Below are positions 9,260-29,656 of a DNA stretch of 64,000 nucleotides, piece by piece. Location: contig JAGNLA010000006.1 in assembly GCA_017999835.1 (NCBI GenBank), forward strand, positions 1-64,000. The letters are read 5' to 3'. A program made the position numbers and the translations under genes. The stretch is from Caldisericia bacterium. Its GTDB lineage: Bacteria; Caldisericota; Caldisericia; JAAYUI01. A model generated the notes under the pieces. That model was not told the DNA's origin, did no database searches, and saw only the letters and a program-made list of their open reading frames with translations. How positions within the stretch are numbered: position 1 is the stretch's first letter; the number at the start of each line of letters is the position of its first letter.

Positions 9260-9931
9260 TTGAGCAATAACTCAATGAGTAAGGAGTTAATGAGTATGGA
9301 CTCAAGCCAAAGAAGCGATCGCAAGGAAAAAACGAGAAAAGCAATCATGGACTCAGCCTTCCAACTTTTCTCGGATAATGGCATTATGAGCACAACAACC
9401 CAGGAAATAGCCAGAAATGCAAACATTTCCCATGGGCTTATCTTCTCATACTTTCCCACGCGCGACATCCTCATCCTGACGATGATTGAAGACTTTGGAC
9501 TCAGGCTGGTTTCGCGCATGAATGAGCTTTCCCAGCCTTTGGGGTCGCTTGAGCAAACGCTGGAGTCTGACCTGACCGTGATAGCCGAAAACGAGGCATT
9601 TTATGCCAGGCTCATGCACGAGGGGCCGACAATTCCACAAACGGCAAGATCAAGCTACATCGTCAACTTGAACTCGATTTCTGCAAAAATCCTGGCTGCC
9701 ATTAAAAGAGAGTTCAAATCGGAGGGTATGAGCGACCAGAGCGCGCAGATGTGGTTGCGATGCTGGAATGGTCTGGTTCTTTACTACCTGATGTATCGCG
9801 ACCTTATCGACCCGGGGAAATCCGTAATAAATGAAAAAAAGGATGAGATAATAAGTTTTTTTGTCAAGTCTATAAAGGGGAGCATTTATGAAACGCTGTC
9901 AATCATGTGGAAGGCTCATCGAACTGCTTGA
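9260..9931 (+). CDS. TetR/AcrR family transcriptional regulator
   Basis: N-terminal HTH (KTRKAIMDSAFQLFSDNGIMSTTTQEIARNANISHGLIFSYFPTRD) typical of TetR. Its 3' end overlaps the next gene by 44 bp. Confidence 0.8.
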   Translation: MSNNSMSKELMSMDSSQRSDRKEKTRKAIMDSAFQLFSDNGIMSTTTQEIARNANISHGLIFSYFPTRDILILTMIEDFGLRLVSRMNELSQPLGSLEQTLESDLTVIAENEAFYARLMHEGPTIPQTARSSYIVNLNSISAKILAAIKREFKSEGMSDQSAQMWLRCWNGLVLYYLMYRDLIDPGKSVINEKKDEIISFFVKSIKGSIYETLSIMWKAHRTA

Positions 9932-10147
9932 AGACTTTGCCGGACTCGACCAATCCAGCATTTATTGCCCATCTTGCGCTGATGATCGCGGAAAGCTTAG
10001 GTCTTTTGAAGAGGTTTTGGAGAATCTCACCCAAAGGATAGCAAAAACCGATGGTTTTGATGAGTCAGCCTCAAGAAACGCAGCTTTGCAGATACTAGGG
10101 AGACAACCGGCCTGGGAGCCGAAGTTCAAACGGGAGGAAAAAGTGAA
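9888..10147 (+). repeat. 260-bp perfect direct repeat, copy 1
   Basis: By eye, identical to 12033-12292 at every base. It encodes aa 1-87 of paralog A. Confidence 0.9.
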
Positions 10148-12020
10148 GAAAAATCAATTGAGATTGAGGATTATAGCCATTACAGTGGTTGTTTCACTTG
10201 TTACGGCTGGAGTGACAATCTGGTTGACTAACACAAATAATACACCAGATAATTCTGTCTACTTAGGATATTCTGTTTCAAAAGGTGAGAATCCATTTGA
10301 AAAAACAACAACTTGGCAAACTGCAAATTATAAAGTAACAAGATTTGCTGCAAAAGGTGATCAAATTCCGACGGCTATTGATAAGGGAGTAATAAAAGTC
10401 AAATCACTTGAAGATTTCGGATCTATCTGGAAAATGACAAAGAAGCTTGAAAAGTTTGAATATTACGCGCAATTTGATCTTTTAGGAGATCGTTCAGCCA
10501 TTGTCAAAAATATGCCATACCTGTCAACATATTGGAATTCATACCTTTTCAATGTAAACAGCAAAAAGAAAGAGGGGTTCCAGCCTGAGAGGAATGAAGG
10601 TGATTCGCTGCTTAAAAGCATGGACCATCCGATTGTCTATATTGATGACAACCCAGAGCAGAAAAGGATGATTATTACAAAAAAAGAATCAGGGGAAAAC
10701 CTAGAATTAAAACGAATAATGCCGATGGATAAGTACAGGAAACAAAAAGATGAAGGAACAGTTAATGATGACTTTTTCCAAATAACTGATTTTTCATTTG
10801 ATAAATCAACATTAAACCAGCTGTTAAAGAATGGGAGGTTTTTGGATGAAATGGAAACTTTTTCACTTGATTATAAAAAATACTTCACACTGAGGATCCC
10901 ATTCAGGCAACCCAAGTATTACAACCCAAAAACTGGCAAGACCAAGACAATTCCGATGAATCTTGATAAAGACTTCGACTACATCTATAACGACCGTTAT
11001 TTTACCTGGACAAGATTAAGATATGTTAATAACGATGAAATTCCGTTTTCATATGACATAAGCAATCTCATCATTGACAAACAAAACATTGAAGACAACC
11101 GGCAGGTTGTTAAGGACCACATTGATTGGAGATTTAATCATGAGCCTGTCGATCAACCTTTCCAAGAGTTGATGTGTTTTGATATGCAAACAGGCAAAAC
11201 ATACACAATTGTATCCTTGAGGCAGATGCCAAATATGGGTCTTGATGTTAATTACAGTCCTATGGTCATCACAAACAATCGAGTTTATTTCTGGAATTAT
11301 TTCGTCAACCGGCTTTTCTCCTATGAGATGTCAACAGGCAAAATGACAAGATTTGACAAGCCATGGTTCAATGCTCCCCTTAAATCCAGAAACAGCCAGG
11401 TATTTGGCAAGATTCAGAATTTCATGACAAATGAACAAGGCAAGAAGATTAACCAGCTTGAAGATGTAGCGCTAATTGCTTTCAATGACAAAACAAGCGT
11501 TACAAGCAAAATAGCTGATGGCAAAGTGCATGATTTCTGGGTTTCGCAGAGCGATGAATCTACAAGACATTTCACTGTCTATTCGAGGTTGACCCCAAAA
11601 GTGCAAGAGCCATACAGCTATTTCTCGAAAGATATGGATAAACTGGATACACCGGAAAAACTTGTTTTCAAAGCCGAAAAGGATTCAAAGAACATTCTTG
11701 GCCTTTATGGGCCTAAGCTTGTTTGGTGCAAGATAGAAGATATAACAGTAAATCATCCCATGTTGGATTTCTCAAAGGCGATGACCTGGTTTTACCGTCT
11801 TAGCAATCTGCTCCCAACTGAATATGGGCTCGAGGTTAAAAACTCCGATAAACCTCAACTTGGCCAACTTTTCATCACCGATCTGGAAACCGGGGAAACC
11901 ATAAAACTAGATGATGGATGTTGTTGGGGTGCCATATCAGACGGGAAAACACTAACTTGGGCGAGATACAAACAATCAGATTCAGAAGATATAGATGTTT
12001 GCTATACAACTTTGGAATAA
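9888..12020 (+). CDS. Zinc-ribbon/TM/ectodomain membrane protein (paralog A, 710 aa)
   Basis: N-terminal CxxC-x17-CxxC zinc ribbon (87 aa), one TM helix (LRIIAITVVVSLVTAGVTIWL), then a ~590-aa hydrophilic ectodomain ending in ...VCYTTLE. Confidence 0.75.
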   Translation: MKRCQSCGRLIELLEDFAGLDQSSIYCPSCADDRGKLRSFEEVLENLTQRIAKTDGFDESASRNAALQILGRQPAWEPKFKREEKVKKNQLRLRIIAITVVVSLVTAGVTIWLTNTNNTPDNSVYLGYSVSKGENPFEKTTTWQTANYKVTRFAAKGDQIPTAIDKGVIKVKSLEDFGSIWKMTKKLEKFEYYAQFDLLGDRSAIVKNMPYLSTYWNSYLFNVNSKKKEGFQPERNEGDSLLKSMDHPIVYIDDNPEQKRMIITKKESGENLELKRIMPMDKYRKQKDEGTVNDDFFQITDFSFDKSTLNQLLKNGRFLDEMETFSLDYKKYFTLRIPFRQPKYYNPKTGKTKTIPMNLDKDFDYIYNDRYFTWTRLRYVNNDEIPFSYDISNLIIDKQNIEDNRQVVKDHIDWRFNHEPVDQPFQELMCFDMQTGKTYTIVSLRQMPNMGLDVNYSPMVITNNRVYFWNYFVNRLFSYEMSTGKMTRFDKPWFNAPLKSRNSQVFGKIQNFMTNEQGKKINQLEDVALIAFNDKTSVTSKIADGKVHDFWVSQSDESTRHFTVYSRLTPKVQEPYSYFSKDMDKLDTPEKLVFKAEKDSKNILGLYGPKLVWCKIEDITVNHPMLDFSKAMTWFYRLSNLLPTEYGLEVKNSDKPQLGQLFITDLETGETIKLDDGCCWGAISDGKTLTWARYKQSDSEDIDVCYTTLE

Positions 12021-12032
12021 TTAGGTGATTTC

Positions 12033-12292
12033 ATGAAACGCTGTCAATCATGTGGAAGGCTCATCGAACTGCTTGAAGACTTTGCCGGACTCGACCAATC
12101 CAGCATTTATTGCCCATCTTGCGCTGATGATCGCGGAAAGCTTAGGTCTTTTGAAGAGGTTTTGGAGAATCTCACCCAAAGGATAGCAAAAACCGATGGT
12201 TTTGATGAGTCAGCCTCAAGAAACGCAGCTTTGCAGATACTAGGGAGACAACCGGCCTGGGAGCCGAAGTTCAAACGGGAGGAAAAAGTGAA
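12033..12292 (+). repeat. 260-bp perfect direct repeat, copy 2
   Basis: Identical to 9888-10147. The sequences diverge immediately 5' of the ATG and after the codon for residue 87. Confidence 0.9.
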
Positions 12293-13715
12293 AACAAATA
12301 AAAAAAGGATAATTCTTGTTCTTACGACAACTGCACTGGTGCTTATGGCATCAATTATTACTGTATTGGTAACAAATACACAGAAGGATTTTTGGGAACA
12401 ACGTTTTGATAAATACTCATCATCTTTCCAAAATCCTTTTGATAACATTAATTCATTTGTTTCAAATGGATTTGAGATTACAGAATTTAAGTGCAAAGGA
12501 AATCAGGAAATAGAGAAACTCCAGAATGGCATACTCCAGTTTTCGAGCCTTGAATCTATTATCAGGGCAAACATCAATAATAAATTAGCAATTCCAGACA
12601 AGTCCAATTATATCTACAATATCAAAACAGGTAAATCCATGAAAATCGGAAGATTCAACAGTTTTTCCCAAAAAGAAACCGACGATCAAATATTGGAAAT
12701 AAGAAAAGTAACTGACGATAACCTATCAGAACTTACATGGATTGAGCCATGTGTGACATTTGATGGAATCTATAAACAAGATGAAGTGAAAAATATCACT
12801 TTGCCGTCAGTATTTGCAAATACAGAAGTGACTTTTTTGATTTTCAATCTTGATCTGAGAAATAAAAAGATTAAAAGTGAATTATATAAACAAACAGCAG
12901 ATAAAGATATTATTTTTAGGGATGAATCAACGATGATCGTTGCATACCCCTTCCCGGTGAATGTTTACAATCAACCATCAAAAATTCACTTATATAAAGG
13001 CAACAAATCAACCCCCTTGGCAAGTTTTGATATTGGTTTCAGATATGCTTCCCTTTATGACAGAGTTGGAAGCAAAATTATTATCAAACTTAAAAAGGAA
13101 TATATGGATGACGATTTCCAGTTGGCAGTTGTAGACTTCAATTCATTAAAATTTGTTGAATTGCCCAACACATTTGATGATCAAAAAACAAAACTTCTTG
13201 CTGGTTCAGGGAAAATTTTTTTTGTAGATGATTATGTAAGCAGGAAAGTCATGATGCTAGATTTGATCAATGGAATATCAAAACTTTTCTCTGCGATTGA
13301 TTTTGATTATGATCTGGTTGGTGTTTTTGGTGATAAAAAGGGAGCAAAATTGCTATTATCAAAACAAGTCAAAGATAACTTTTCTGAGAAGCAGTATTAT
13401 ATCTACGACATTTCTTCAAACCAATATAAACTTTTGATAACAGGGAATTTTGACATATTGTTTACTGAAAAAAATTGCCTTATATATACTGACCACATTA
13501 ATAAAGACAACAATGGTCTCCCAATCAACAAAAACCAAAAAATTCGATTGATGATAACAGAAATAAACAATGCTAAGTCAACGGTTTTAAATGATGATGT
13601 TTCGGTATCGGAAAGTGTGAAGGTGTTTTCTGATGGTTTCAGCATCGCCTGGACAAGAAACGCAGGTCCAAAAGACGACCAGTGGAAAAATGTCTGCTAC
13701 ACGGTTCTCCCATAA
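12033..13715 (+). CDS. Zinc-ribbon/TM/ectodomain membrane protein (paralog B, 560 aa)
   Basis: Its first 87 aa are identical to paralog A. It has a different TM helix (IILVLTTTALVLMASIITVLV) and a divergent ectodomain that ends with a related tail, ...NVCYTVLP. Confidence 0.75.
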   Translation: MKRCQSCGRLIELLEDFAGLDQSSIYCPSCADDRGKLRSFEEVLENLTQRIAKTDGFDESASRNAALQILGRQPAWEPKFKREEKVKTNKKRIILVLTTTALVLMASIITVLVTNTQKDFWEQRFDKYSSSFQNPFDNINSFVSNGFEITEFKCKGNQEIEKLQNGILQFSSLESIIRANINNKLAIPDKSNYIYNIKTGKSMKIGRFNSFSQKETDDQILEIRKVTDDNLSELTWIEPCVTFDGIYKQDEVKNITLPSVFANTEVTFLIFNLDLRNKKIKSELYKQTADKDIIFRDESTMIVAYPFPVNVYNQPSKIHLYKGNKSTPLASFDIGFRYASLYDRVGSKIIIKLKKEYMDDDFQLAVVDFNSLKFVELPNTFDDQKTKLLAGSGKIFFVDDYVSRKVMMLDLINGISKLFSAIDFDYDLVGVFGDKKGAKLLLSKQVKDNFSEKQYYIYDISSNQYKLLITGNFDILFTEKNCLIYTDHINKDNNGLPINKNQKIRLMITEINNAKSTVLNDDVSVSESVKVFSDGFSIAWTRNAGPKDDQWKNVCYTVLP

Positions 13716-13878: not shown

Positions 13879-14826
13879 TCAAAGCTGGGGATCAATGGCG
13901 GAAACATCGGATTTGCCTAGGTTTGACGTGGTCAGCCAGATACCAAGCAGAACCACGAACCCGCCGGCAACCGTCTGCCAGGTGATGACCTCACCCATAA
14001 AAAAGTAAGCAATCAGCGACGCGCCGATCGGTTCAAACAAAACAGCTGTCGTTGTGATGGCCGGTGTCAGGTGCTTGACGCCAATGTTTAGCGCTGTGTG
14101 ACCCAAGAAATGCGGGAAAATGCCCATGCCGATCATGGCAAGCCATGCCCAGTGGTTGAAACCAGTCAGAGCATTGCCGGCAACCACCGCTCCAACAAGC
14201 AAAACAACGGTTGCTGTTGGGTAGGACACCGAAACTGTCTGCCAGACAGTCAGCTTTTCCTGACAAACCTTGGAGAGCAGCAGGTAGGCGCAGGCAAAAA
14301 TAGCTGCAACAACCGCGTAAGCAGCGCCAAGCAGAGATGTTGACTGACCGACTCCGCCTGAAAGGGCGATGAATGTTGAACCAGAAAAAGCGACAACGAT
14401 GCCAACAAGCGTCACCCAGCCCAGTTTTTTCTTCCAGAAAAGGAACTCGGCAAGCACCGTCCAAATTGGCGTGGTTGTAACCAGCACCACGCACTGGGGC
14501 AGCGGCATCATCGACATCGCCTGAAACCACAGAACAAAATGGAACGCAAGCAGCACGCCGGAGATGATGGCAAGGCTCAGATGCAGCGATTGCTTTGAAA
14601 ACGGTCGGGAGATGTTGGCAAAAAACGATTTCCAGTCCAGCGTCCAGGGTTTGCCGATGGGGATGACGATAAGGGTTGCTGTCAAAAGCCTCCAAAATGC
14701 CATGGTGAAAGGGATGCCGTCTGCGCCGTTGTGCTGGGCGATGCGGATGAACGGAGCAGCCAGGCAGATGCCTGCTATGCCTGCTGCAAGAAGCGTTAGA
14801 TAAAAAGCCTTTGACCTGTTTTCCAT
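13879..14826 (-). CDS. EamA/DMT-family transporter
   Basis: About 10 TM helices in two duplicated halves, typical of EamA (drug/metabolite exporter). Its start overlaps the stop of the upstream gene. Confidence 0.8.
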   Translation of the reverse strand: MENRSKAFYLTLLAAGIAGICLAAPFIRIAQHNGADGIPFTMAFWRLLTATLIVIPIGKPWTLDWKSFFANISRPFSKQSLHLSLAIISGVLLAFHFVLWFQAMSMMPLPQCVVLVTTTPIWTVLAEFLFWKKKLGWVTLVGIVVAFSGSTFIALSGGVGQSTSLLGAAYAVVAAIFACAYLLLSKVCQEKLTVWQTVSVSYPTATVVLLVGAVVAGNALTGFNHWAWLAMIGMGIFPHFLGHTALNIGVKHLTPAITTTAVLFEPIGASLIAYFFMGEVITWQTVAGGFVVLLGIWLTTSNLGKSDVSAIDPQL

Positions 14827-15605
14827 CAGGGATAATTAGCGAGTTTTTGGTCAAGCAAGTCAATTAACTGTTGAGGAATATCATATTCAAAAATTGAAGA
14901 GTGGAGAATCATATCTTTAACATCAAAGCATTCTTTTATTTTTGATCGACTGTTTCCTTCTATGCCTGGAAAACAAACATATGTAAAATATTCCATCACT
15001 TTGATGCATAAAATATTGAAATCTAAAGCTATTTCTGGTTGCTTTCTTAAATCAGTTAGCAACTTGCCATCCTTTTCCATACAACTATAGATGTCCTTGG
15101 TCACATCTTTATCTAAATTCAAACCTGGATGAACAATCGAATGCCTAAGCAATGAGTGTTTAAAGTATTTCTTAATATATGACTCGTATATTTTAATATC
15201 TCTTTCAAGAATCGCATTGGTGTTATTAAGTCTTTTTCTGGCGTGTTCTGGTAATCGTTTTAATACTTTATTGAATTTCTTATTTTCACCTTGTTGAGTT
15301 TCCTTGTCCCATCTCTTTAATAAGAATAGCCAATCGTCTTTCATTTCAGTATTTAGGTGATTTGGATTAGTATTTGGATTTAAATGATCGTATATTCTTG
15401 AACCAGATATTTTAACATAATATTCTAGGGATGTGTTGATAAAGACAATCGATGAGTAGGCATAATATTGTTTAATATCATAATACAAAAAGGTGTTAAT
15501 ACCAGGCGGAACATAGAAAGCATGCAAAAGCATATAGGTAGCTATTTGAAATTGTTTGAAGTTTCTTATCAGGTTATTTGACAAATTATTCCCTTCCAGC
15601 CTCAA
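14826..15605 (-). CDS. Hypothetical protein, AT-rich, possible HEPN-like Rx4H motif
   Basis: 259 aa, K/N/Y-rich, with GC well below its neighbours. It contains LLRHSIVHPG (an R-x4-H motif). It overlaps the upstream gene by 20 bp and the downstream gene by 1 bp, indicating translational coupling. Confidence 0.5.
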   Translation of the reverse strand: MRLEGNNLSNNLIRNFKQFQIATYMLLHAFYVPPGINTFLYYDIKQYYAYSSIVFINTSLEYYVKISGSRIYDHLNPNTNPNHLNTEMKDDWLFLLKRWDKETQQGENKKFNKVLKRLPEHARKRLNNTNAILERDIKIYESYIKKYFKHSLLRHSIVHPGLNLDKDVTKDIYSCMEKDGKLLTDLRKQPEIALDFNILCIKVMEYFTYVCFPGIEGNSRSKIKECFDVKDMILHSSIFEYDIPQQLIDLLDQKLANYP

Positions 15606-17991
15606 ATATTGGGGATATCATCTTTTCTCCGTCATCGTGCAGCCAGGCAAGAGCGCGGTCGCGTCCACCGTTCATTACAATCCTAAGCCATTTGCCGTCA
15701 GTGTTTCTTGGGATGTCGATTACTTTGATGACATTTACAAAATTCTCTGCGGAAGAAACAAAAGTTAAAAGGCTGTTTGAAGAGTTTTGAATGAATTCGT
15801 TGTTGAAAATTGCGCCTTTGTCGTCCGGGTAGAGCGGCAGGTAGCTGATGTTGGCTTCAACCAAATCCTGGAAAAAATGGGTGCCAAAAGAGAGTTCAGG
15901 GGTGTAGTTACCTTTTTTCTTGGCGACTTCGATGAGTGCCGCGGTATTGTTGATATCGCTGTAGGTTACCCGAACGCCCATCTTGATGTCACCGCGTGAA
16001 CCCCATCTGCCGGGCCCAATCAGGATAAATCGGCGTTTTGCCAAGGCAATATTGAGTCTTCCAATGATTCGACCAACTTCGAGCATTTCGGTTTGGGTCT
16101 GGAGCTTGTCGTATTCGACCGGGTCAACGTAGACCAGGTAGCGGATGTTGTCGCACACTCCATCGCTGACATATCTTGAAGCCGAGAAAATCTTATCTTT
16201 TTCTGGAATGCGTTCAGGTATTTCGACACTTTCACCAATAACGTTGTGTGCCTGAGGTCTGCACTGCAGAATGTAGAGATCGGTGCCGTCAGATGCAAAC
16301 TCGACATCAACCGGAGTTTTGAGTGTCTTTGAGAGAATTTCAAGAATCAGTTTCATTTGCTTTAGGAAAGGCGTTCTGGTGAGCAAACCTTCAAAGGTGA
16401 ATACCAGATTGGGGTCTTTCGCGTCAAAGGAGATAGGGTTTAAATCAAACATATTCCCATGCTCGTATCTGCTCAAAAGCCTTATCAATCCTGGATATTC
16501 TTCACCATGGTCACGGACGAGTTTGTCAATTTCAAGTGTTTTAAACTCCGAGGTTTCAAGGTCTATGACATCGATGTGGCGCTGGCTGTATCTGGCAACT
16601 TCCTCAGGGATGACGTTAACTCTCAGGCCGGGTTGCCCGGGTGAGACCAGCAACGGATAGTCGTTCCCGACCCTATCCACTGCTCTTGTGCCCAATCCCG
16701 CGACGAGCCTTATGATTCCATCTTCCCGCTTGATCCTTGGGGACCATCTGAATTCGTTGTTGCTGAAGGCAACGCCTGCAAAACTTGGGAGATAGTATTT
16801 ACCAATTTTTGTACCGACAACCTGTTGAATAAGACAACCCATTTCCTCGCGATAATCTAACAGACCCCGCTCGGTTCTGTACTGGATTGCATCTGGATTC
16901 AGCGTTGAGGCATAAACTTCGGCGATGGCATCACCCAGTTGTTCAAGTCTGTTCTTTTTTGGACCGAGATTTGCTATGAAAAGGCTTTTATATTTACCAG
17001 AAAATGCTGCCCCAAAGCTATCTTCAAGCAATGATGAACTACGTGTGATGATCGGCTTTTCGGCCAAATCATCAAGCGCAAGACTGAAACCTGTGACAAT
17101 TTCCGAGGAGAATTCCGAGTGCTTAAAAACTTGCTCAAAATATTGGTATTGGTATCTTACCTCGTCAAGGGTGTTGTATTTCAGATTAAGCACTTCATCC
17201 AGAGCATTGAACATGATGAAGTCATAGATGCCATCTGAAAGCAGGTACCAGGTTCTTGGTGTTTTGATGTTGCTCAGGAGTTCAGGGTATTTTAGCTTTG
17301 CGTTGTTGATTATTGAATGAGCCAGGAATAACCCTGCGCCTTTTCCTCCGAGTCTGCCTGTTCCTTGCGCAGGTCCAATTACTCTTGTGAGAAGATCACC
17401 AAAATCAGCTATCGAAAGTTCATTTTTGGCGATATTGATAAAATGGAGGTCATTTTTGAGAAAACGTCGGGTCAAGCCGACTTTGACGCCCATTTCCTGT
17501 GCCTCGGAGAGGTTTCGTTCGGTTTCTGGCAGTTTGAAGTACCTGCCCATCGTATCTGTTATCTCGACCAGTGGAATGCCTATTTTTTCAGCAGCCTGAA
17601 CCAAAAATTTTGTCCTATCTTCACGTATCCATTGCATAAGGTTTTCACTAATGGCTTTTGGATCAAGCGACTTGGAGGCAATTGTGAAGGTCTCATCAAG
17701 AACTTTTTCAAGTTCATTCAGATCGAGCTTTGGATTTGGTTTGTTTTGTCCAGAGGCTTCGTCCAGCTTGAGTTCCGCCAGTACTTTATTGAAACGGTCA
17801 ATAAGCGCACCGATCTCTGGGACACCTTTTCTGTAGAGCATGTTGAGCAGTCTTCTGCTCAGACGGTTCAAAAGCTTTGAATCTGTGACTTTGAGCAGGT
17901 TGATGATGACCTGCCACTCCGGGTTCCTTGTGTAGATTTTTCTGGTTTCATTCATGCCATGGAGTGTATTGTGTTTAAACGATTTGGGCAA
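15586..17991 (-). CDS. PEP/pyruvate-binding (PPDK_N, ATP-grasp) domain protein
   Basis: A central region (GRLGGKGAGLF...ITRSSSLLEDSFGAAFSGKYKSL...VEFASDGTDLYILQCRP) matches the nucleotide-binding domain of PEP synthase, pyruvate phosphate dikinase and rifampin phosphotransferase. No obvious His-swivel domain. Confidence 0.75.
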   Translation of the reverse strand: MPKSFKHNTLHGMNETRKIYTRNPEWQVIINLLKVTDSKLLNRLSRRLLNMLYRKGVPEIGALIDRFNKVLAELKLDEASGQNKPNPKLDLNELEKVLDETFTIASKSLDPKAISENLMQWIREDRTKFLVQAAEKIGIPLVEITDTMGRYFKLPETERNLSEAQEMGVKVGLTRRFLKNDLHFINIAKNELSIADFGDLLTRVIGPAQGTGRLGGKGAGLFLAHSIINNAKLKYPELLSNIKTPRTWYLLSDGIYDFIMFNALDEVLNLKYNTLDEVRYQYQYFEQVFKHSEFSSEIVTGFSLALDDLAEKPIITRSSSLLEDSFGAAFSGKYKSLFIANLGPKKNRLEQLGDAIAEVYASTLNPDAIQYRTERGLLDYREEMGCLIQQVVGTKIGKYYLPSFAGVAFSNNEFRWSPRIKREDGIIRLVAGLGTRAVDRVGNDYPLLVSPGQPGLRVNVIPEEVARYSQRHIDVIDLETSEFKTLEIDKLVRDHGEEYPGLIRLLSRYEHGNMFDLNPISFDAKDPNLVFTFEGLLTRTPFLKQMKLILEILSKTLKTPVDVEFASDGTDLYILQCRPQAHNVIGESVEIPERIPEKDKIFSASRYVSDGVCDNIRYLVYVDPVEYDKLQTQTEMLEVGRIIGRLNIALAKRRFILIGPGRWGSRGDIKMGVRVTYSDINNTAALIEVAKKKGNYTPELSFGTHFFQDLVEANISYLPLYPDDKGAIFNNEFIQNSSNSLLTFVSSAENFVNVIKVIDIPRNTDGKWLRIVMNGGRDRALAWLHDDGEKMISPIFEAGRE

Positions 17992-18005: not shown

Positions 18006-18046
18006 AAATAATAAAACACCCCCACAGATATCTGCGGGGGTGTTGG
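18006..18046 (-). terminator. Rho-independent terminator of gdhA
   Basis: On the minus strand, a hairpin CACCCCCGCAGAtatcTGTGGGGGTG followed by TTTTATTATTT. Confidence 0.65.
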
Positions 18047-18165: not shown

Positions 18166-19482
18166 TCAGACCCAACCTCTGAGCTTGCATGCATCGGCAA
18201 CGCGTGTGATTGCGATCATGTAGGCTGCGTCTCTCATGAAGACATTTTTCTTCTTTGAAAGATCTGCAACTGCGTGGAAGGCTGATGTCATCTTCTTGTC
18301 GAGTTTGTCAAGAACTTCTTCCTTTTCCCAGAAGTAGTTCATGTTGCACTGAACCTGTTCGAAGTATGAGCATGTAACTCCGCCTGCGTTTGCAAGGAAA
18401 TCTGGAATCACGAAGATGCCTCTCTCGTGAAGGACGTGGTCTGCAACTGGAGTTGTTGGTCCATTTGCGCCTTCGCCGATGATCTTGACCTTCTTGGAGA
18501 TCTTGCCAACGTTTTCGCCTGTGATCTGGTTTTCTATGGCTGCTGGAAGGAGAATGTCGACTTCCTGTTCAATCCATGCGTCGCCTGGAAGGACTTCGTA
18601 ACCGAGTTCTTTTGCTTTCTTTGGATCAATTCCGCCGAACTTGTCGGTGATCTTGATGAGTTCCTGGAATGTGATTCCGCTTGTCTTTTTGAAGGTGTAG
18701 CTGCACTGATCGTCCTGGCACCAGCTTGAGACTGCGATAACCTTTCCACCGTACTGTGTGTAAAGGTCGATTGCGTACTGGGAGACGTTTCCAAATCCCT
18801 GTACTGCTGCTGTTGTGTTCTTTGGATCAATGTTCATAAGCTTGAGGGCTTCTCTGACTGTGTAGATGAGACCATAACCTGTTGCTCCTGTTCTACCAAG
18901 TGAACCACCCATGCCGACTGGTTTACCTGTGATGAATCCTGGGAAGTGTCCGCCCATGATCTTTTCATACTCGTCCATCATCCACAGCATGTGCTGACCT
19001 GTGGTCATGACGTCTGGAGCTGGAACGTCCTGGACTGGTCCGACGTTACGAACAACCTGTCTGACCCAACCACGGCAAATCTGTTCCTGTTCTCTCATGG
19101 AAAGGTTGTGTGGATCGCAAATAACTCCACCTTTGCCGCCACCAAGTGGGATGTCGACAACTGAGCACTTCCATGTCATCCATGTTGCAAGTGCGCGAAC
19201 GGTGTCTGCTGTTTCCTGTGGATGGAAACGAATTCCACCTTTTGCTGGGCCACGTGCATCACTGTGCTGGACTCTGAAACCCTGGAACACCTTTGTTGAG
19301 CCGTCATCCATCTTTACAGGAATTCTGAAATGATATTCCCTGATTGGCTGACGAAGCAGCTGCCTTGTGCCTTCATCGAGCTGGAGCATGTCTGCCACTC
19401 TGTCAAACTGATCCTGTGCCATCTTGAATGCGTTAAAACCCTTATCGCTCATTCTATCTCTCCTTTTGAGGCGGAATCTCAC
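18166..19482 (-). CDS. gdhA: Glutamate dehydrogenase (Glu/Leu/Phe/Val dehydrogenase family)
   Basis: KGGIRFHP and PLGGGKGG catalytic motifs, an NAD(P)-binding GxGNVS motif, and a length of 438 aa. Confidence 0.92.
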   Translation of the reverse strand: MRFRLKRRDRMSDKGFNAFKMAQDQFDRVADMLQLDEGTRQLLRQPIREYHFRIPVKMDDGSTKVFQGFRVQHSDARGPAKGGIRFHPQETADTVRALATWMTWKCSVVDIPLGGGKGGVICDPHNLSMREQEQICRGWVRQVVRNVGPVQDVPAPDVMTTGQHMLWMMDEYEKIMGGHFPGFITGKPVGMGGSLGRTGATGYGLIYTVREALKLMNIDPKNTTAAVQGFGNVSQYAIDLYTQYGGKVIAVSSWCQDDQCSYTFKKTSGITFQELIKITDKFGGIDPKKAKELGYEVLPGDAWIEQEVDILLPAAIENQITGENVGKISKKVKIIGEGANGPTTPVADHVLHERGIFVIPDFLANAGGVTCSYFEQVQCNMNYFWEKEEVLDKLDKKMTSAFHAVADLSKKKNVFMRDAAYMIAITRVADACKLRGWV

Positions 19483-21731: not shown

Positions 21732-23504
21732 TTGAACCAACCGCAATCTTTAGGCATACTCATTAACATGAGGTTGCTTTCACTGGTTGCGGTCTTTTTT
21801 TTACTGTTTGGTGCTATCCCAACAAACATTTCTGGGGATTCATTCTTTGAGAAAGCAGATGATTATCAAAAACAGTTTGTCGATGCCCCACCAGTCTACT
21901 CATATGCTGATGGCAAGATTATAAAAAAAGGGTGCAAAGTTCTTTCCACCCAATCTTTGGAACCAGACTCAAAGATAATTATCAATTATGATGGCAGCAC
22001 CGGTTTTGCCCCCGACGAGTTGGAGTACATTAAAAACTTTATCGAGGGTGGCGGAGAGTTTAAAGTTGGGATGGCCAAGTGCATAGAAATGGTGTTTGGT
22101 AAAGCTTTTTTTGGTGTGACTGTCAATCTGGTTAAAACCGACTCCAAGGATTCAAAGTACGATTCCCAATTGCAAACTGTTTTTCTTAAACCTGATGTGT
22201 GCAAGGCTGGTGACCTTTTTACAAAAATTGAAACCCTTGCTCACGAACTCATACATGCCCACTCGGATGTTTTGATGAAACCGATGAACTGCTACGAGGA
22301 AGGGATGACTGTTGCCATGACAGACCTTGCTGGTAAGTTGTTTTGTCAGTTTAACGGGGTAACCGGCAGGGCAGCTGAAGTTTTCGATGGACCACCAGCA
22401 GGAACCAGAGATTATGATTTGTTAAACCAGGAGGCAGCAGCAGCAACGAATGGTTTTTTCTGGACAACTTCGGATTTAACCTATCGTCGGGTCGTTGGTG
22501 CAAGCGAACGTTACAGGCTAGCTGGCACTGCCTGGTGGAAGATCTGGCGGCAAACTGTTCCTGGCAATATTGATATCGACGACCCAAACACATATGGCTC
22601 AGGCACGTTCTTTGTGGATTTTAACAAGGAATTCTACAACACCTTCAGGCCATGGGTGGACACAGGCAGAAGGTTTGTTTTTGACGACGACGTCATCAAG
22701 CTCATAAAGCTCCAGATGAAACGTGTTTTAACCAACGACAAGGGCAACTCGTTCATTGAAGGTCAGGATTTTGATGAATGGTATGAGTCACAGTACATAT
22801 TAAATGTAGGTGTCAATGAAGGGCCAAAACTCTATGTGAACCAGTCCTGGCAGCCCACGCTCGCGCCCTCGGGTGGGCTTTGGAACGCCTGTGGATTTCC
22901 ACAGATTTCATATTTCTACAAGGATGCCCAGGGCAACGAGAACCTCCTGAGTGGAAAATTAAAAGTTGAAATTTCGTCTTTGGCGCAGGTCGATTATGGA
23001 CAACCTTTGACTTGCCAGTCTCGTTTTGTTTTCTGGAACAATGGCAATGTTAAGCCAGCTGCCTGGCAGGAGTATGAGATTGAGAATGGACAGATAGCTG
23101 CACTTTCGAAAACCTCTTCAACGCTGGGCGCTTTGGACTTTTCACAGATACTCCGAAGAGGGTGCAAGATCGTTTTAACCGCGTCAACTTTTGATGATCT
23201 CTATGAGGTTAGACGTGAACTTTTCTTCCCGGTAAAGATTGGTGTGGAGAGGAATTCTGGTCTGTGTTACGGAACCATTGATGTCTCAAAACCGGGAACT
23301 TTGAGGTGTGAAAGAAGCTCTTTCCCGGAAGTAAAGCAGGTAATTCCAATTAACGGTGATGGGACATACATGGTAAGTTTTGGGCCGGCAGACATAATAA
23401 CATTTTACTATACGACCATAGACGATCTGGGCGAGGAGACAACCGAAGAGATAACCGTTGTTGCTGGCACAAAAGAGATGATCAAAAACCTAACTTTCAG
23501 ATAA
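21732..23504 (+). CDS. Secreted putative zinc metallopeptidase (HExxH)
   Basis: Signal peptide (MRLLSLVAVFFLLFGAIP) and a zincin motif LAHELIHAHSD. The remainder of the sequence is novel. Confidence 0.55.
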   Translation: MNQPQSLGILINMRLLSLVAVFFLLFGAIPTNISGDSFFEKADDYQKQFVDAPPVYSYADGKIIKKGCKVLSTQSLEPDSKIIINYDGSTGFAPDELEYIKNFIEGGGEFKVGMAKCIEMVFGKAFFGVTVNLVKTDSKDSKYDSQLQTVFLKPDVCKAGDLFTKIETLAHELIHAHSDVLMKPMNCYEEGMTVAMTDLAGKLFCQFNGVTGRAAEVFDGPPAGTRDYDLLNQEAAAATNGFFWTTSDLTYRRVVGASERYRLAGTAWWKIWRQTVPGNIDIDDPNTYGSGTFFVDFNKEFYNTFRPWVDTGRRFVFDDDVIKLIKLQMKRVLTNDKGNSFIEGQDFDEWYESQYILNVGVNEGPKLYVNQSWQPTLAPSGGLWNACGFPQISYFYKDAQGNENLLSGKLKVEISSLAQVDYGQPLTCQSRFVFWNNGNVKPAAWQEYEIENGQIAALSKTSSTLGALDFSQILRRGCKIVLTASTFDDLYEVRRELFFPVKIGVERNSGLCYGTIDVSKPGTLRCERSSFPEVKQVIPINGDGTYMVSFGPADIITFYYTTIDDLGEETTEEITVVAGTKEMIKNLTFR

Positions 23505-23527: not shown

Positions 23528-24007
23528 ATGGACAGTGTGTTTTGGATAATCGAAAGATCGCTTTGTGGGAGGCCTGGGCCAGCAGAATCTCCGTGGAATG
23601 TTAACGAACTCTACGATGGCGGCATCAGGGCGATTATTTCACTTGACCAAGATGACGTTGACCATCAGGCGATTAATGACGCCGGTATTGAACATATGTC
23701 TTTTGCCCTGCCCGATTCAATCCCACCAACTGATGAAGATGCAACGCTCTGGCAGAAGGTTTTGCCTCAAGCCTTCAACTATATTAAAAAGTGGACGTCT
23801 GACAGCCAAGGTGCCATAATGGTTCACTGTCATGCCGGGAAAGACAGGACTGGAGTGCTTTTGGGGTCATACTTAACCATTGTTGAAGGACTTGATCCGA
23901 AGGATGCGTTTTCAAGGCTAAGAGTGGCCAGACCTGTGGCGATGACCTCAGAAGGTTATGAAGCATTCTTTTTTGATCTTATGTATAAAATCAAGCATCA
24001 AAGATAG
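23528..24007 (+). CDS. Dual-specificity/tyrosine protein phosphatase
   Basis: P-loop HCHAGKDRTG (CX5R) and a length of 159 aa. Confidence 0.8.
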   Translation: MDSVFWIIERSLCGRPGPAESPWNVNELYDGGIRAIISLDQDDVDHQAINDAGIEHMSFALPDSIPPTDEDATLWQKVLPQAFNYIKKWTSDSQGAIMVHCHAGKDRTGVLLGSYLTIVEGLDPKDAFSRLRVARPVAMTSEGYEAFFFDLMYKIKHQR

Positions 24008-24534: not shown

Positions 24535-27478
<2,944 letters not shown>

Positions 27479-27553: not shown

Positions 27554-27674
<121 letters not shown>

Positions 27675-27748: not shown

Positions 27749-29016
27749 ATGAAAACACTACGCTTTATAGATCTTTTTGCTGGATTAGGTGGCACAAGAA
27801 TCGGTTTTGAAAATGCTTGCAAGAATAACATGTTTAACTATGAATGTGTCTTTAGTAGTGAAATAAAACCATATGCAGTTAAAGTTTATAAAGAGAACTT
27901 TAATGAATCTTCATATTGTGATATAACTAAGGTTAATTCTAAGGATATTCCAAATTTTGATTATTTATTGGCAGGATTCCCATGCCAATCATTTAGCAGC
28001 GCAGGTTTAAAACAAGGCTTTAATGATGTAAGAGGTAATCTTTTTTTGATATAATAAGAATATTAAAAGATAAGTCACCGAGAGGATTTCTACTTGAGAA
28101 TGTTGATGCTCTTTTGGTACATGATAAAGGAAAAACATTTAATGTAATTAAAGAAAATCTTGTTAACTTAGGTTATGACGTTGTTTATTCTATATATAAC
28201 TCAAAAGACTTTGGAATACCACAAAACAGAAAACGTTTATATATCTGGGGTACAAAAAATAAAAATTCTAGATTCGAAATTATTAAAAAAGAGAAAAAGG
28301 TTATTAATGATATATTAGAAGATAATATTGAAAATGATAAGTCTGCTTTTATAGACTATTTGTTAAAAATGTACCCTATCGATTTTTTAATCGGAAAATC
28401 AATAAAAGACAAACGTGGTGGACACACCAATATTCATAGTTGGGATTTAAATTTAAAAGGTGAAACAACAACTGAACAAAAACGATTGTTGAATATGTTA
28501 CTAAAAAAAAGAAGATTGAAAAAATGGGCAATTAATAAAGGTATTAATTGGATGGATGGTATGCCATTAACATATAACGAAATAAGTACTTTTTATTATT
28601 CAGAAAACCTACTATCTATTCTTAATGATTTAACTAATAAAGGATATTTAAAATATGAGCACCCTAAGGAGTTAATAACTGTAAATGGAATAAAAAAAAG
28701 AGTTTATGCAAAAGATAAAGAGAAAGGTTATAATATTGTAGCTGGAAAATTATCCTTTCCAATTGCTCGAATACTTGATCCATTTGATATTTGTCCAACA
28801 TTAGTGGCAACAGAAGTTGGAAAATATGTAATTCCAACCACCAATGGGTTAAGAAGATTTACAATTAGAGAAGGGTTAAGATTGGCAGGATTTCCAGATT
28901 CATATAAATTGGATTTTTTATCATACGATGAGGCCTTTGATTTATTAGGAAATACAATTACTCCAATTGTAGTAGAAAGCATATTAGATAAGGTAATAAA
29001 AGATGAATGCAACTGA
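27749..29016 (+). pseudogene. DNA (cytosine-5) methyltransferase, frameshifted at a T7 homopolymer
   Basis: Motif I DLFAGLGGTRIGF and motif IV GFPCQSFS lie in frame 1 (27749-28054). ENV (RGFLLENVDALL) and QNRKRLYIWG lie in another frame that continues to 29016. One extra T in the T7 run at 28041-28047 would restore RGNLFFDIIRILKD... Confidence 0.85.
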
Positions 29017-29656
29017 AATAAAAAATTTATTAGAATCTACGGTATTATTTAATAAAGGTAGTATAGAATTTACTTTAGCGAATATAAAAACGATTATAGG
29101 GGATATAAATATAGTTGGTAATGTAATCCAAGATTGGTTGAAAGAGTTCTTTAATAAAAATTCTATTTATTATCGAATTCCTTCAAACACACAAGAATTT
29201 CCAGATTTTTTATTAAATACAGATAGCGACAAGTTGGATTTATTAGAAGTAAAATGTTTTACTAAAAGTCCTAATTTTGATATTGCAAACTTTTCAGCTT
29301 ATTGCAGATCATTAATTTGTAATGCATATAGATTAAATTCTGATTATTTAATATTTGAATATTCTCAATGTGATAATAAAATGATTGAAATTCAAAATAT
29401 TTGGTTAAAAAAAGTTTGGGAAATATGTGGATCTTCAGAAAGAGCACCTATAAACTTGCGATGGAAACAAAACCAGATATACAATATTAGACCTATAAGA
29501 TGGTTTTCAGATAAGAACAAAAATAAGCCTTTTAAATCTAGATTAGAATTTATAAATGCACTCGAATCTGTCTTGAAGCAAGATTCACATTACCAAAAAA
29601 ATTGGAAAAGAATGGTCATTGATAATTACTACAGCGAAACAGGCCAAGAGTTATAA
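29003..29656 (+). CDS. Putative type II restriction endonuclease (PD-(D/E)xK)
   Basis: It overlaps the MTase by 14 bp. It contains FPDFLL...DLLEVKCF (PD...ExK), has very low GC, and has no other homology clues. Confidence 0.55.
   Translation: MNATEIKNLLESTVLFNKGSIEFTLANIKTIIGDINIVGNVIQDWLKEFFNKNSIYYRIPSNTQEFPDFLLNTDSDKLDLLEVKCFTKSPNFDIANFSAYCRSLICNAYRLNSDYLIFEYSQCDNKMIEIQNIWLKKVWEICGSSERAPINLRWKQNQIYNIRPIRWFSDKNKNKPFKSRLEFINALESVLKQDSHYQKNWKRMVIDNYYSETGQEL

Follow-up and report, generated by a model that had tools for sequence, protein, structure and literature searches.

Proteins of the HEPN superfamily are defined by an Rx4-6H motif, in which a polar residue (N, D or H) follows the arginine, located where helix 3 ends and the loop to helix 4 begins, and Ex3[KR] in helix 2 is their second conserved feature (Anantharaman et al. 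2013, PMC3710099). One of their families, HEPN_RiboL-PSP (PF18735), has been placed in a branch resembling abortive infection (Abi) proteins and is reported as a distant relative of AbiD/AbiF (PMC3710099). Other HEPN proteins are the toxins of HEPN-MNT type II/VII toxin-antitoxin systems, such as Shewanella SO_3166/SO_3165 (PDB 5yep). Two other groups are also relevant here: the phosphoenolpyruvate (PEP) synthase, PPDK and rifampin phosphotransferase (RPH) enzymes, which have an ATP-grasp domain, and the EamA/drug-metabolite transporter (DMT) family (TIGR00950 2A78; YddG, YedA). We analyzed a 64,000-nt stretch of contig JAGNLA010000006.1 (positions 1 to 64,000, hereafter the window), from the metagenome-assembled genome (MAG) of a Caldisericia bacterium, in which three minus-strand open reading frames (ORFs) lie in a row at 13879-17991. 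They encode a dikinase-like enzyme, a middle protein that we call MID and an EamA transporter; together we refer to them as the trio. With modest confidence, we lean towards explaining this locus as a layered composite, built up in successive steps, and not as a dedicated three-gene machine.

The starts of homologous genes and Shine-Dalgarno-like elements fix the sizes of the three proteins at 789, 252 and 315 amino acids (aa), respectively. The dikinase-like gene (15586..17955, minus strand) begins at the ATG at 17955, since the alignment of its homologs, which are 789-791 aa long, begins at this methionine; the maximal ORF extends to a TTG at 17991. The MID gene (14826..15584, minus strand) begins at the TTG at 15584, which corresponds to the position where its homologs open with ATG at MS[NY]N[LI]IR, and in all loci a Shine-Dalgarno-like GGAAGGG or AAGGA(G) is present 5-11 nt 5′ of this start. 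The TTG is located 1 nt past the TAA stop of the dikinase-like gene (15586-15588), leaving a 1-nt gap. At the other end, the MID stop and the ATG of the EamA gene (13879..14826, minus strand) overlap by 1 nt in a TGATG at 14826. This stop/start overlap recurs in four of the five other lineages carrying the trio (loci L002, L005, L092 and L094/95), while in L001 the two genes abut with no TGATG overlap. The initial annotation had described the same three tightly packed genes, which is correct, but with lengths of 801 and 259 aa for the first two and a 20-bp overlap at 15586-15605, from which, along with the 1-bp overlap at 14826, co-translation was deduced. The overlap at 14826 is real; the two lengths and the 20-bp overlap are artefacts of choosing the first possible TTG, that is, the longest ORF. 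Translational coupling across the three genes is plausible from the corrected junctions.

The dikinase-like enzyme shares only the ATP-grasp domain with PEP synthase, PPDK and RPH. PPDK_N (PF01326) is the sole Pfam domain detected in the 801-aa ORF (residues 213-594, E 2.5e-51), in agreement with the nucleotide-binding domain of RPH or PEP-synthase type proposed initially, and the matches of a PDB profile search were confined to the ATP-grasp segments. No Pfam match at E ≤ 0.1 was obtained for the swivel domain (PF00391) or the PEP/pyruvate TIM barrel (PF02896), and no RIF-binding domain was found, so the three-domain architecture of RPH is not present. Scores against the NCBIfam equivalog models of PEP synthase, PPDK and RPH ranged from 13 to 42 bits, with cut-offs of 456-1300; for example, the score was 41.6 bits for PEP_synth (cut-off 739.75) and 22 bits for the RPH model NF041857 (cut-off 999). 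An AlphaFold2 model built from a 50-sequence alignment (pLDDT 83, pTM 0.81) predicted an N-terminal helical domain (~1-200), the ATP-grasp PPDK_N domain and a C-terminal alpha/beta domain (~583-789), the first and last of which set this enzyme apart from the three known ones.

The C-terminal domain carries two segments, GPGRWG-RGD (647-656) and SFGTHFF (689-695), that are invariant in both the 14- and the 50-sequence alignments of the enzyme and whose full readings are GPGRWGSRGD and SFGTHFFQD. The statement of the initial annotation that no recognizable His-swivel domain exists holds; a divergent domain bearing a histidine is nonetheless present. We infer that His693 (789-aa numbering; codon at 15877..15879, minus strand), which is positioned at the N-terminus of a predicted helix (692-700), could serve this domain as a phospho-carrier or as its catalytic histidine. 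The enzyme belongs to a family of more than 7,774 clusters, about 50% identical over 97% of their length, that is distributed in many bacterial phyla and in Thermoplasmata archaea, with hits in at least 600 species. Long forms of this family, from other phyla, are extended at both ends, by a module at the N-terminus and an MNT-type nucleotidyltransferase (PF01909/PF18765) at the C-terminus, whereas the enzymes of the trio loci are short forms without the nucleotidyltransferase. In the long forms P0054, P0062 and P0117, the N-terminal module is about 150 aa long (LxERxKELNCLY...WQYPE), and the same module begins a histidine kinase encoded by a neighboring gene (L047, 1779-3077). The module shared with a histidine kinase and the MNT domain hint at a sensory or regulatory role of the enzyme family.

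The conserved partner of the enzyme is glutamate dehydrogenase (GDH). A GDH homolog is encoded on the same strand upstream of the enzyme in 69 of 90 loci, a proportion that rises to 53 of 55 when only the loci whose upstream sequence exceeds 4.5 kb are counted. The window keeps this core: a GDH gene, outside the coordinates covered by the initial annotation, lies directly upstream of the enzyme (438-aa ORF, 18166..19482, minus strand; Pfam ELFV_dehydrog, E 2.7e-71, and ELFV_dehydrog_N, E 2.5e-54; NCBIfam GdhA_Arch, E 4.5e-145, under the equivalog cut-off). In 39 loci, a second, shorter dikinase-like paralog, 27-30% identical to the enzyme, is inserted between the two genes; it keeps the G-[TA]-H-F-F motif, and no such paralog is present in the window. 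Our full-text literature search retrieved no publication linking this enzyme family to GDH, an absence that is no proof that the link is unreported. This near-universal linkage across phyla offers a testable starting point for the function of a large uncharacterized ATP-grasp family and, although a side result, it may be the more useful outcome of this analysis. In 21 loci, a convergent ORF of about 286 aa forms a conserved cluster just 3′ of the enzyme gene; read by eye, its product resembles a metallophosphoesterase.

The EamA protein has the two tandem repeats of its family (PF00892, E 1.9e-29) and a typical length of 315 aa, as the initial annotation had recognized. Its best NCBIfam match was TIGR00950, a carboxylate/amino acid/amine transporter model (E 9e-16), yet it falls under every equivalog cut-off, and its coupling to a dikinase is seen only in Caldisericota-like genomes, where it adjoins the enzyme 3′ end. 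No EamA or MID homolog was detected by tblastn within 7 kb of the enzyme in any of 80 loci from species of other phyla. EamA orthologs of 42-46% identity directly follow the enzyme in two relatives that lack MID: L088, whose enzyme is 54% identical, has GDH, the enzyme and EamA in this order, a 14-nt overlap and, beyond GDH, divergent electron transfer flavoprotein (ETF) alpha and beta genes, and L087 (enzyme 61% identical) has GDH - enzyme - EamA with a 287-nt spacer between the last two genes, in which no remnant of MID was found. A third relative, L090 (enzyme 64% identical), has neither EamA nor MID. These arrangements indicate that EamA joined the enzyme in the Caldisericota-like lineage and that MID was inserted at their junction later. 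All six clusters of MID homologs are likewise located in a trio, at the enzyme-EamA junction. The three genes do recur together in other genomes, so the lack of co-occurrence that the initial annotation named as a refutation is not seen, but all these genomes belong to a single narrow clade, the pattern expected from one inherited insertion. The trio as such amounts to genes juxtaposed in one lineage and does not constitute a new system.

The locus had also been interpreted as a small-molecule modification/export or rifamycin-type resistance module, in which the enzyme would phosphorylate a drug or metabolite in the manner of RPH, MID would assist and EamA would export the product. We consider this very unlikely. 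The RPH model is missed by a wide span of bits and neither the RIF-binding nor the PF00391 domain was found; the enzyme is conserved across phyla with GDH, and not with an exporter, as its partner; and the older dikinase-EamA pairs do without MID. The annotation of this locus as a resistance module, although tempting, should be corrected.

MID is identical to the NCBI entry "hypothetical protein KA140_04195 [Caldisericia bacterium]", and its family is very small. Six clusters of homologs were found among the 5.8 billion clusters searched, and a HMMER scan of 1.84 billion representatives with the full profile added one fragment and one distant protein of 257 aa (P0128). A further profile search with a wider MID alignment added no members, tblastn against plasmid and phage collections gave no match, and metagenome contigs scanned with either the MID alignment or P0128 revealed no relatives. 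The protein is predicted to be soluble and basic (isoelectric point 8.8), without a transmembrane segment, and all-alpha (AlphaFold2, 7-sequence alignment; pLDDT 76, pTM 0.81). Abi-type HEPN proteins are similar in size, at about 250 aa.

The initial annotation had pointed to a possible HEPN-like LLRHSIVH motif, and further signatures now accompany it. The arginine and the second histidine of this motif are invariant in all full-length homologs, and the residue after the arginine is H or D in the seven close sequences and N in P0128 (RNYIVH), which carries the canonical RNxxxH. In the window, this candidate catalytic Rx4H motif is R147-H-S-I-V-H152 (252-aa numbering; 15129..15146, minus strand). 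In the model, made in the numbering of the 259-aa ORF, the same residues (R154/H159) close a predicted helix, 134-158, the third long one, and are followed by a loop, a short helix, a hairpin and a helix at 186-211. The candidate Ex3[KR] motif is E54-Y-Y-V-K58 (15411..15425, minus strand); in the seven close sequences its glutamate never varies and the fourth residue after it is K or R, and the motif lies (E61-x3-K/R65 in the 259-aa numbering) inside the second helix, a long one predicted at 38-75. At the aligned position, P0128 reads D-E...H. A helical insert is predicted between the second and third helices. In a search of 24,736 Pfam models, six of the eight members of the MID family matched PF18735 at E ≤ 1, with a best E of 5.3e-6, and one matched PF18737 (HEPN_MAE_28990).

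Compared with the PF18735 family, MID is alike in the R-[HDN]-x3-H that closes its predicted third core helix and the Ex3[K/R] in the second, in the predicted all-alpha bundle with its insert between helices 2 and 3, and in being AT-rich, fast-evolving and sporadically distributed. It differs in its scores, which stay under the gathering threshold, in lacking an L-PSP RNase fusion or a ParB neighbor, in being embedded in a metabolic operon by stop/start coupling and in having only eight known sequences. MID also differs from HEPN-MNT pairs: no MNT gene is adjacent, MID is twice the size of the toxin, and neither of its neighbors, a PPDK_N enzyme and an EamA protein, is antitoxin-like.

The base composition of MID sets it apart from its flanks, as first reported. 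Its GC content is 0.31 and its GC content at third codon positions (GC3) is 0.29, compared with 0.45 and 0.49 for the dikinase-like gene and 0.53 and 0.61 for the EamA gene, the latter being the highest GC3 among the 43 ORFs of the window. MID has the third lowest GC3 of these ORFs; only the two genes of a mobile defense pair of the restriction-modification (R-M) type are lower. This composition, along with the absence of MID from the L087 and L088 junctions, bears out the foreign or mosaic origin suggested by the initial annotation. The idea that mosaic GC reflects a recent transfer had to be modified, as the low GC is common to all the divergent trio loci: the GC3 of MID is 0.29 in every one of them, with 0.5-0.6 in the flanks, even though the proteins are only 39-78% identical. 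This points to an AT-rich gene pool or to allele exchange, and not to a single recent event. The R-M pair itself occupies 28114-29656, directly 3′ of the ribosomal RNA genes; its two genes, the most AT-rich of the window (GC 0.26-0.27, GC3 0.17-0.20), overlap each other by 14 nt. The product of one is a C5 cytosine DNA methylase, whose ORF covers only the C-terminal two-thirds of its Pfam model, and that of the other is an NgoBV-type restriction endonuclease.

The length and frame of MID are conserved and its NG86 omega ranges from 0.11 to 0.31 (0.17 in the closest and least saturated pair), so MID is a real gene under purifying selection. It evolves faster than its neighbors, with nonsynonymous divergence (dN) 2-25 times that of the flanks (0.02-0.14 for the enzyme and EamA genes); synonymous divergence (dS) is saturated for most pairs and these rate comparisons are rough. 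In the comparison between L005 and L002, the amino-acid identity is 96% for the enzyme tail and 90% for EamA, and only 39% for MID. At the nucleotide level, the two loci are 0.87 identical up to the exact start of MID, where the value drops to 0.33-0.62; it rises again some 60 nt ahead of the stop. The synonymous divergence of MID is saturated while that of the flanks is about 0.8-1.3. These patterns indicate that the gene was replaced by a divergent allele and did not only change rapidly in place.

The initial annotation also raised a defense-related cassette with the HEPN-like protein as its effector; in an anti-phage system of this kind, the enzyme would be a kinase-like sensor and EamA the membrane component. 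The HEPN-like signatures of MID, its hypervariable alleles and an AT-richness like that of the R-M genes in the window would be in line with this. We nevertheless give it very little credence, since the enzyme is of a highly conserved, GDH-linked, housekeeping type, both it and EamA evolve slowly and were at the locus before MID, the flanks are metabolic (GDH and the ETF alpha and beta genes), and no trio protein has a match in PADLOC.

The context of the distant homolog P0128 is different from that of the trio. In L091 (510-4389), the P0128 gene has 1 nt in common with the 3′ end of a gene for a DECH-box helicase of the MrfA/Hrq1 type with an MZB domain (TIGR03817), and a convergent gene for a phospholipase D (PLD)/NucT/DrmC-like nuclease follows. 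The three may form a small helicase-HEPN-PLD module.

Taken together, the AT-richness, the rate, the allele replacement and the context of P0128 lead us to favor, for MID, a conflict-type gene riding host operons over a subunit of the pathway. Several results weigh against this interpretation or against the HEPN assignment on which it builds. The PF18735 matches of the family members are under the gathering score of 28.4 bits (25.2 bits, E 1.8e-5, for P0004 and 22.3 bits for P0006), and the MID protein of the window itself has no Pfam match, nor any in NCBIfam or PHROGs. A Foldseek search with MID against the PDB returned nothing (E > 0.6), and a PDB sequence-profile search with the MID alignment gave only noise from coiled coils and de novo designs. 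PADLOC (PADLOC-DB 2.0) had no match at E ≤ 0.1 for the three trio proteins and the two downstream neighbors, and the trio shows neither an antitoxin nor an MNT nucleotidyltransferase, nor anything else that would regulate a HEPN toxin. The saturation of dS blunts the rate argument, and the retention of MID at the same junction under purifying selection would be expected, too, if MID were functionally linked to its neighbors.

Were MID not a HEPN protein at all, it would be a lineage-specific helical protein with an unrelated function, whose R-x4-H is coincidental, a view with which the failed or sub-threshold searches would agree. We judge it improbable, because six of the eight members pick the same HEPN family out of all Pfam models. 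MID probably belongs to the HEPN superfamily, in which we would class it and its homologs as a small new family. RNase activity is a prediction from the conserved motifs that we regard as equally apt to prove right or wrong.

More has to be weighed for the proposal that MID is a non-catalytic or regulatory HEPN accessory subunit of the enzyme or of EamA, for instance a ligand- or substrate-binding module, the role that HEPN domains have for nucleotidyltransferases. All six clusters of homologs keep the exact junction and its stop/start coupling, and the long forms of the enzyme carry an MNT-type nucleotidyltransferase, a domain type of which HEPN is the classical partner (PMC3710099); the retention of MID under purifying selection keeps the proposal alive. 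However, the trio enzymes are the short forms, HEPN domains that serve as binding modules usually lose the Rx4-6H motif (PMC3710099), which is invariant in MID, and most of the enzyme family works without MID. In addition, the dN of MID is 5-25 times that of its supposed partners, its alleles are swapped independently of them, and P0128 is coupled to a helicase and not to a dikinase. We therefore find a subunit role unlikely and retain the conflict-gene interpretation.

The layered composite would have been assembled as follows. The oldest layer, found in many phyla, is GDH followed on the same strand by the 770-790-aa dikinase-like enzyme. The enzyme would most likely use ATP to phosphorylate a substrate, perhaps via His693, and its function may be tied to glutamate/2-oxoglutarate metabolism or to the control of GDH. 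The second layer, specific to the Caldisericota-like lineage, is the EamA/DMT transporter at the 3′ end of the enzyme gene, which plausibly moves an amino acid or a carboxylate as part of this metabolism. In the third layer, restricted to one sub-clade that includes this MAG, the AT-rich HEPN-type gene of 252 aa was inserted exactly at the enzyme-EamA junction, where it would be expressed by stop/start coupling on both sides. Its product is predicted to be a metal-independent endoribonuclease, with R147 and H152 acting together with E54, and probably dimeric. We propose that it is a conflict gene, of a toxin or abortive-infection type, that rides on the host operon.

If so, this locus would be an example of a small gene of the conflict type that entered a coupled metabolic operon at a precise point and evolved from then on as an exchangeable cassette, which bears on where defense and toxin genes may hide beyond the classical islands. 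A bolder pair of readings is that MID founds a class of operon-embedded HEPN RNases and that the GDH-linked family is a new ATP-dependent phosphotransferase; these seem possible to us, if rather doubtful. If they were true, such HEPN genes would insert at host stop/start junctions, as between dikinase and EamA genes or at the 3′ end of an MrfA-type helicase gene, be translated only by coupling and be exchanged as hypervariable alleles. MID would then be a toxin or abortive-infection effector without a cognate antitoxin, its dose set by a core metabolic operon, and the enzyme would use a phosphohistidine domain of a new type, with glutamate/2-oxoglutarate metabolism or GDH itself as its target.

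Regarding expression of the locus, a strong, terminator-like hairpin was identified between the GDH stop and the dikinase-like start by a consensus scan and direct reading of the sequence (18015..18044, minus strand). It has a 13-bp stem with 8 G-C pairs, which is followed by TTATTATTT, and it may be a full or partial terminator. A sigma-70 scan revealed no convincing promoter between this hairpin and the dikinase-like start, and an Rfam scan of the region gave no match. Beyond GDH, the ETF beta and alpha genes are divergently oriented in the window.

Other features of the window lie further from the trio. Complete 23S (24552-27478) and 5S (27557-27673) ribosomal RNA genes are present on the plus strand; no 16S gene was found anywhere in the window, so it must lie more than about 24 kb upstream or be unlinked. 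Between the ETF genes and this rRNA operon are a gene for a 590-aa protein without a Pfam domain (21732-23504) and, downstream of it, one for a 159-aa protein resembling dual-specificity/tyrosine phosphatases (23528-24007; DSPc, E 3e-11). On the other side of the trio, a 286-nt direct repeat, 97% identical, is present at 9872-10157 and 12017-12302, each copy spanning the start region of one of two plus-strand genes arranged in tandem, 9888-12020 (710 aa) and 12033-13715 (560 aa). The first ~86 residues of the two proteins are identical and include a zinc-ribbon-like CxxC...CxxC, and the remainder is divergent and AT-rich, a pattern suggestive of gene conversion or of an N-terminal module common to both. 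In L005 and L002, the corresponding position holds a gene for a homolog of the 560-aa protein.

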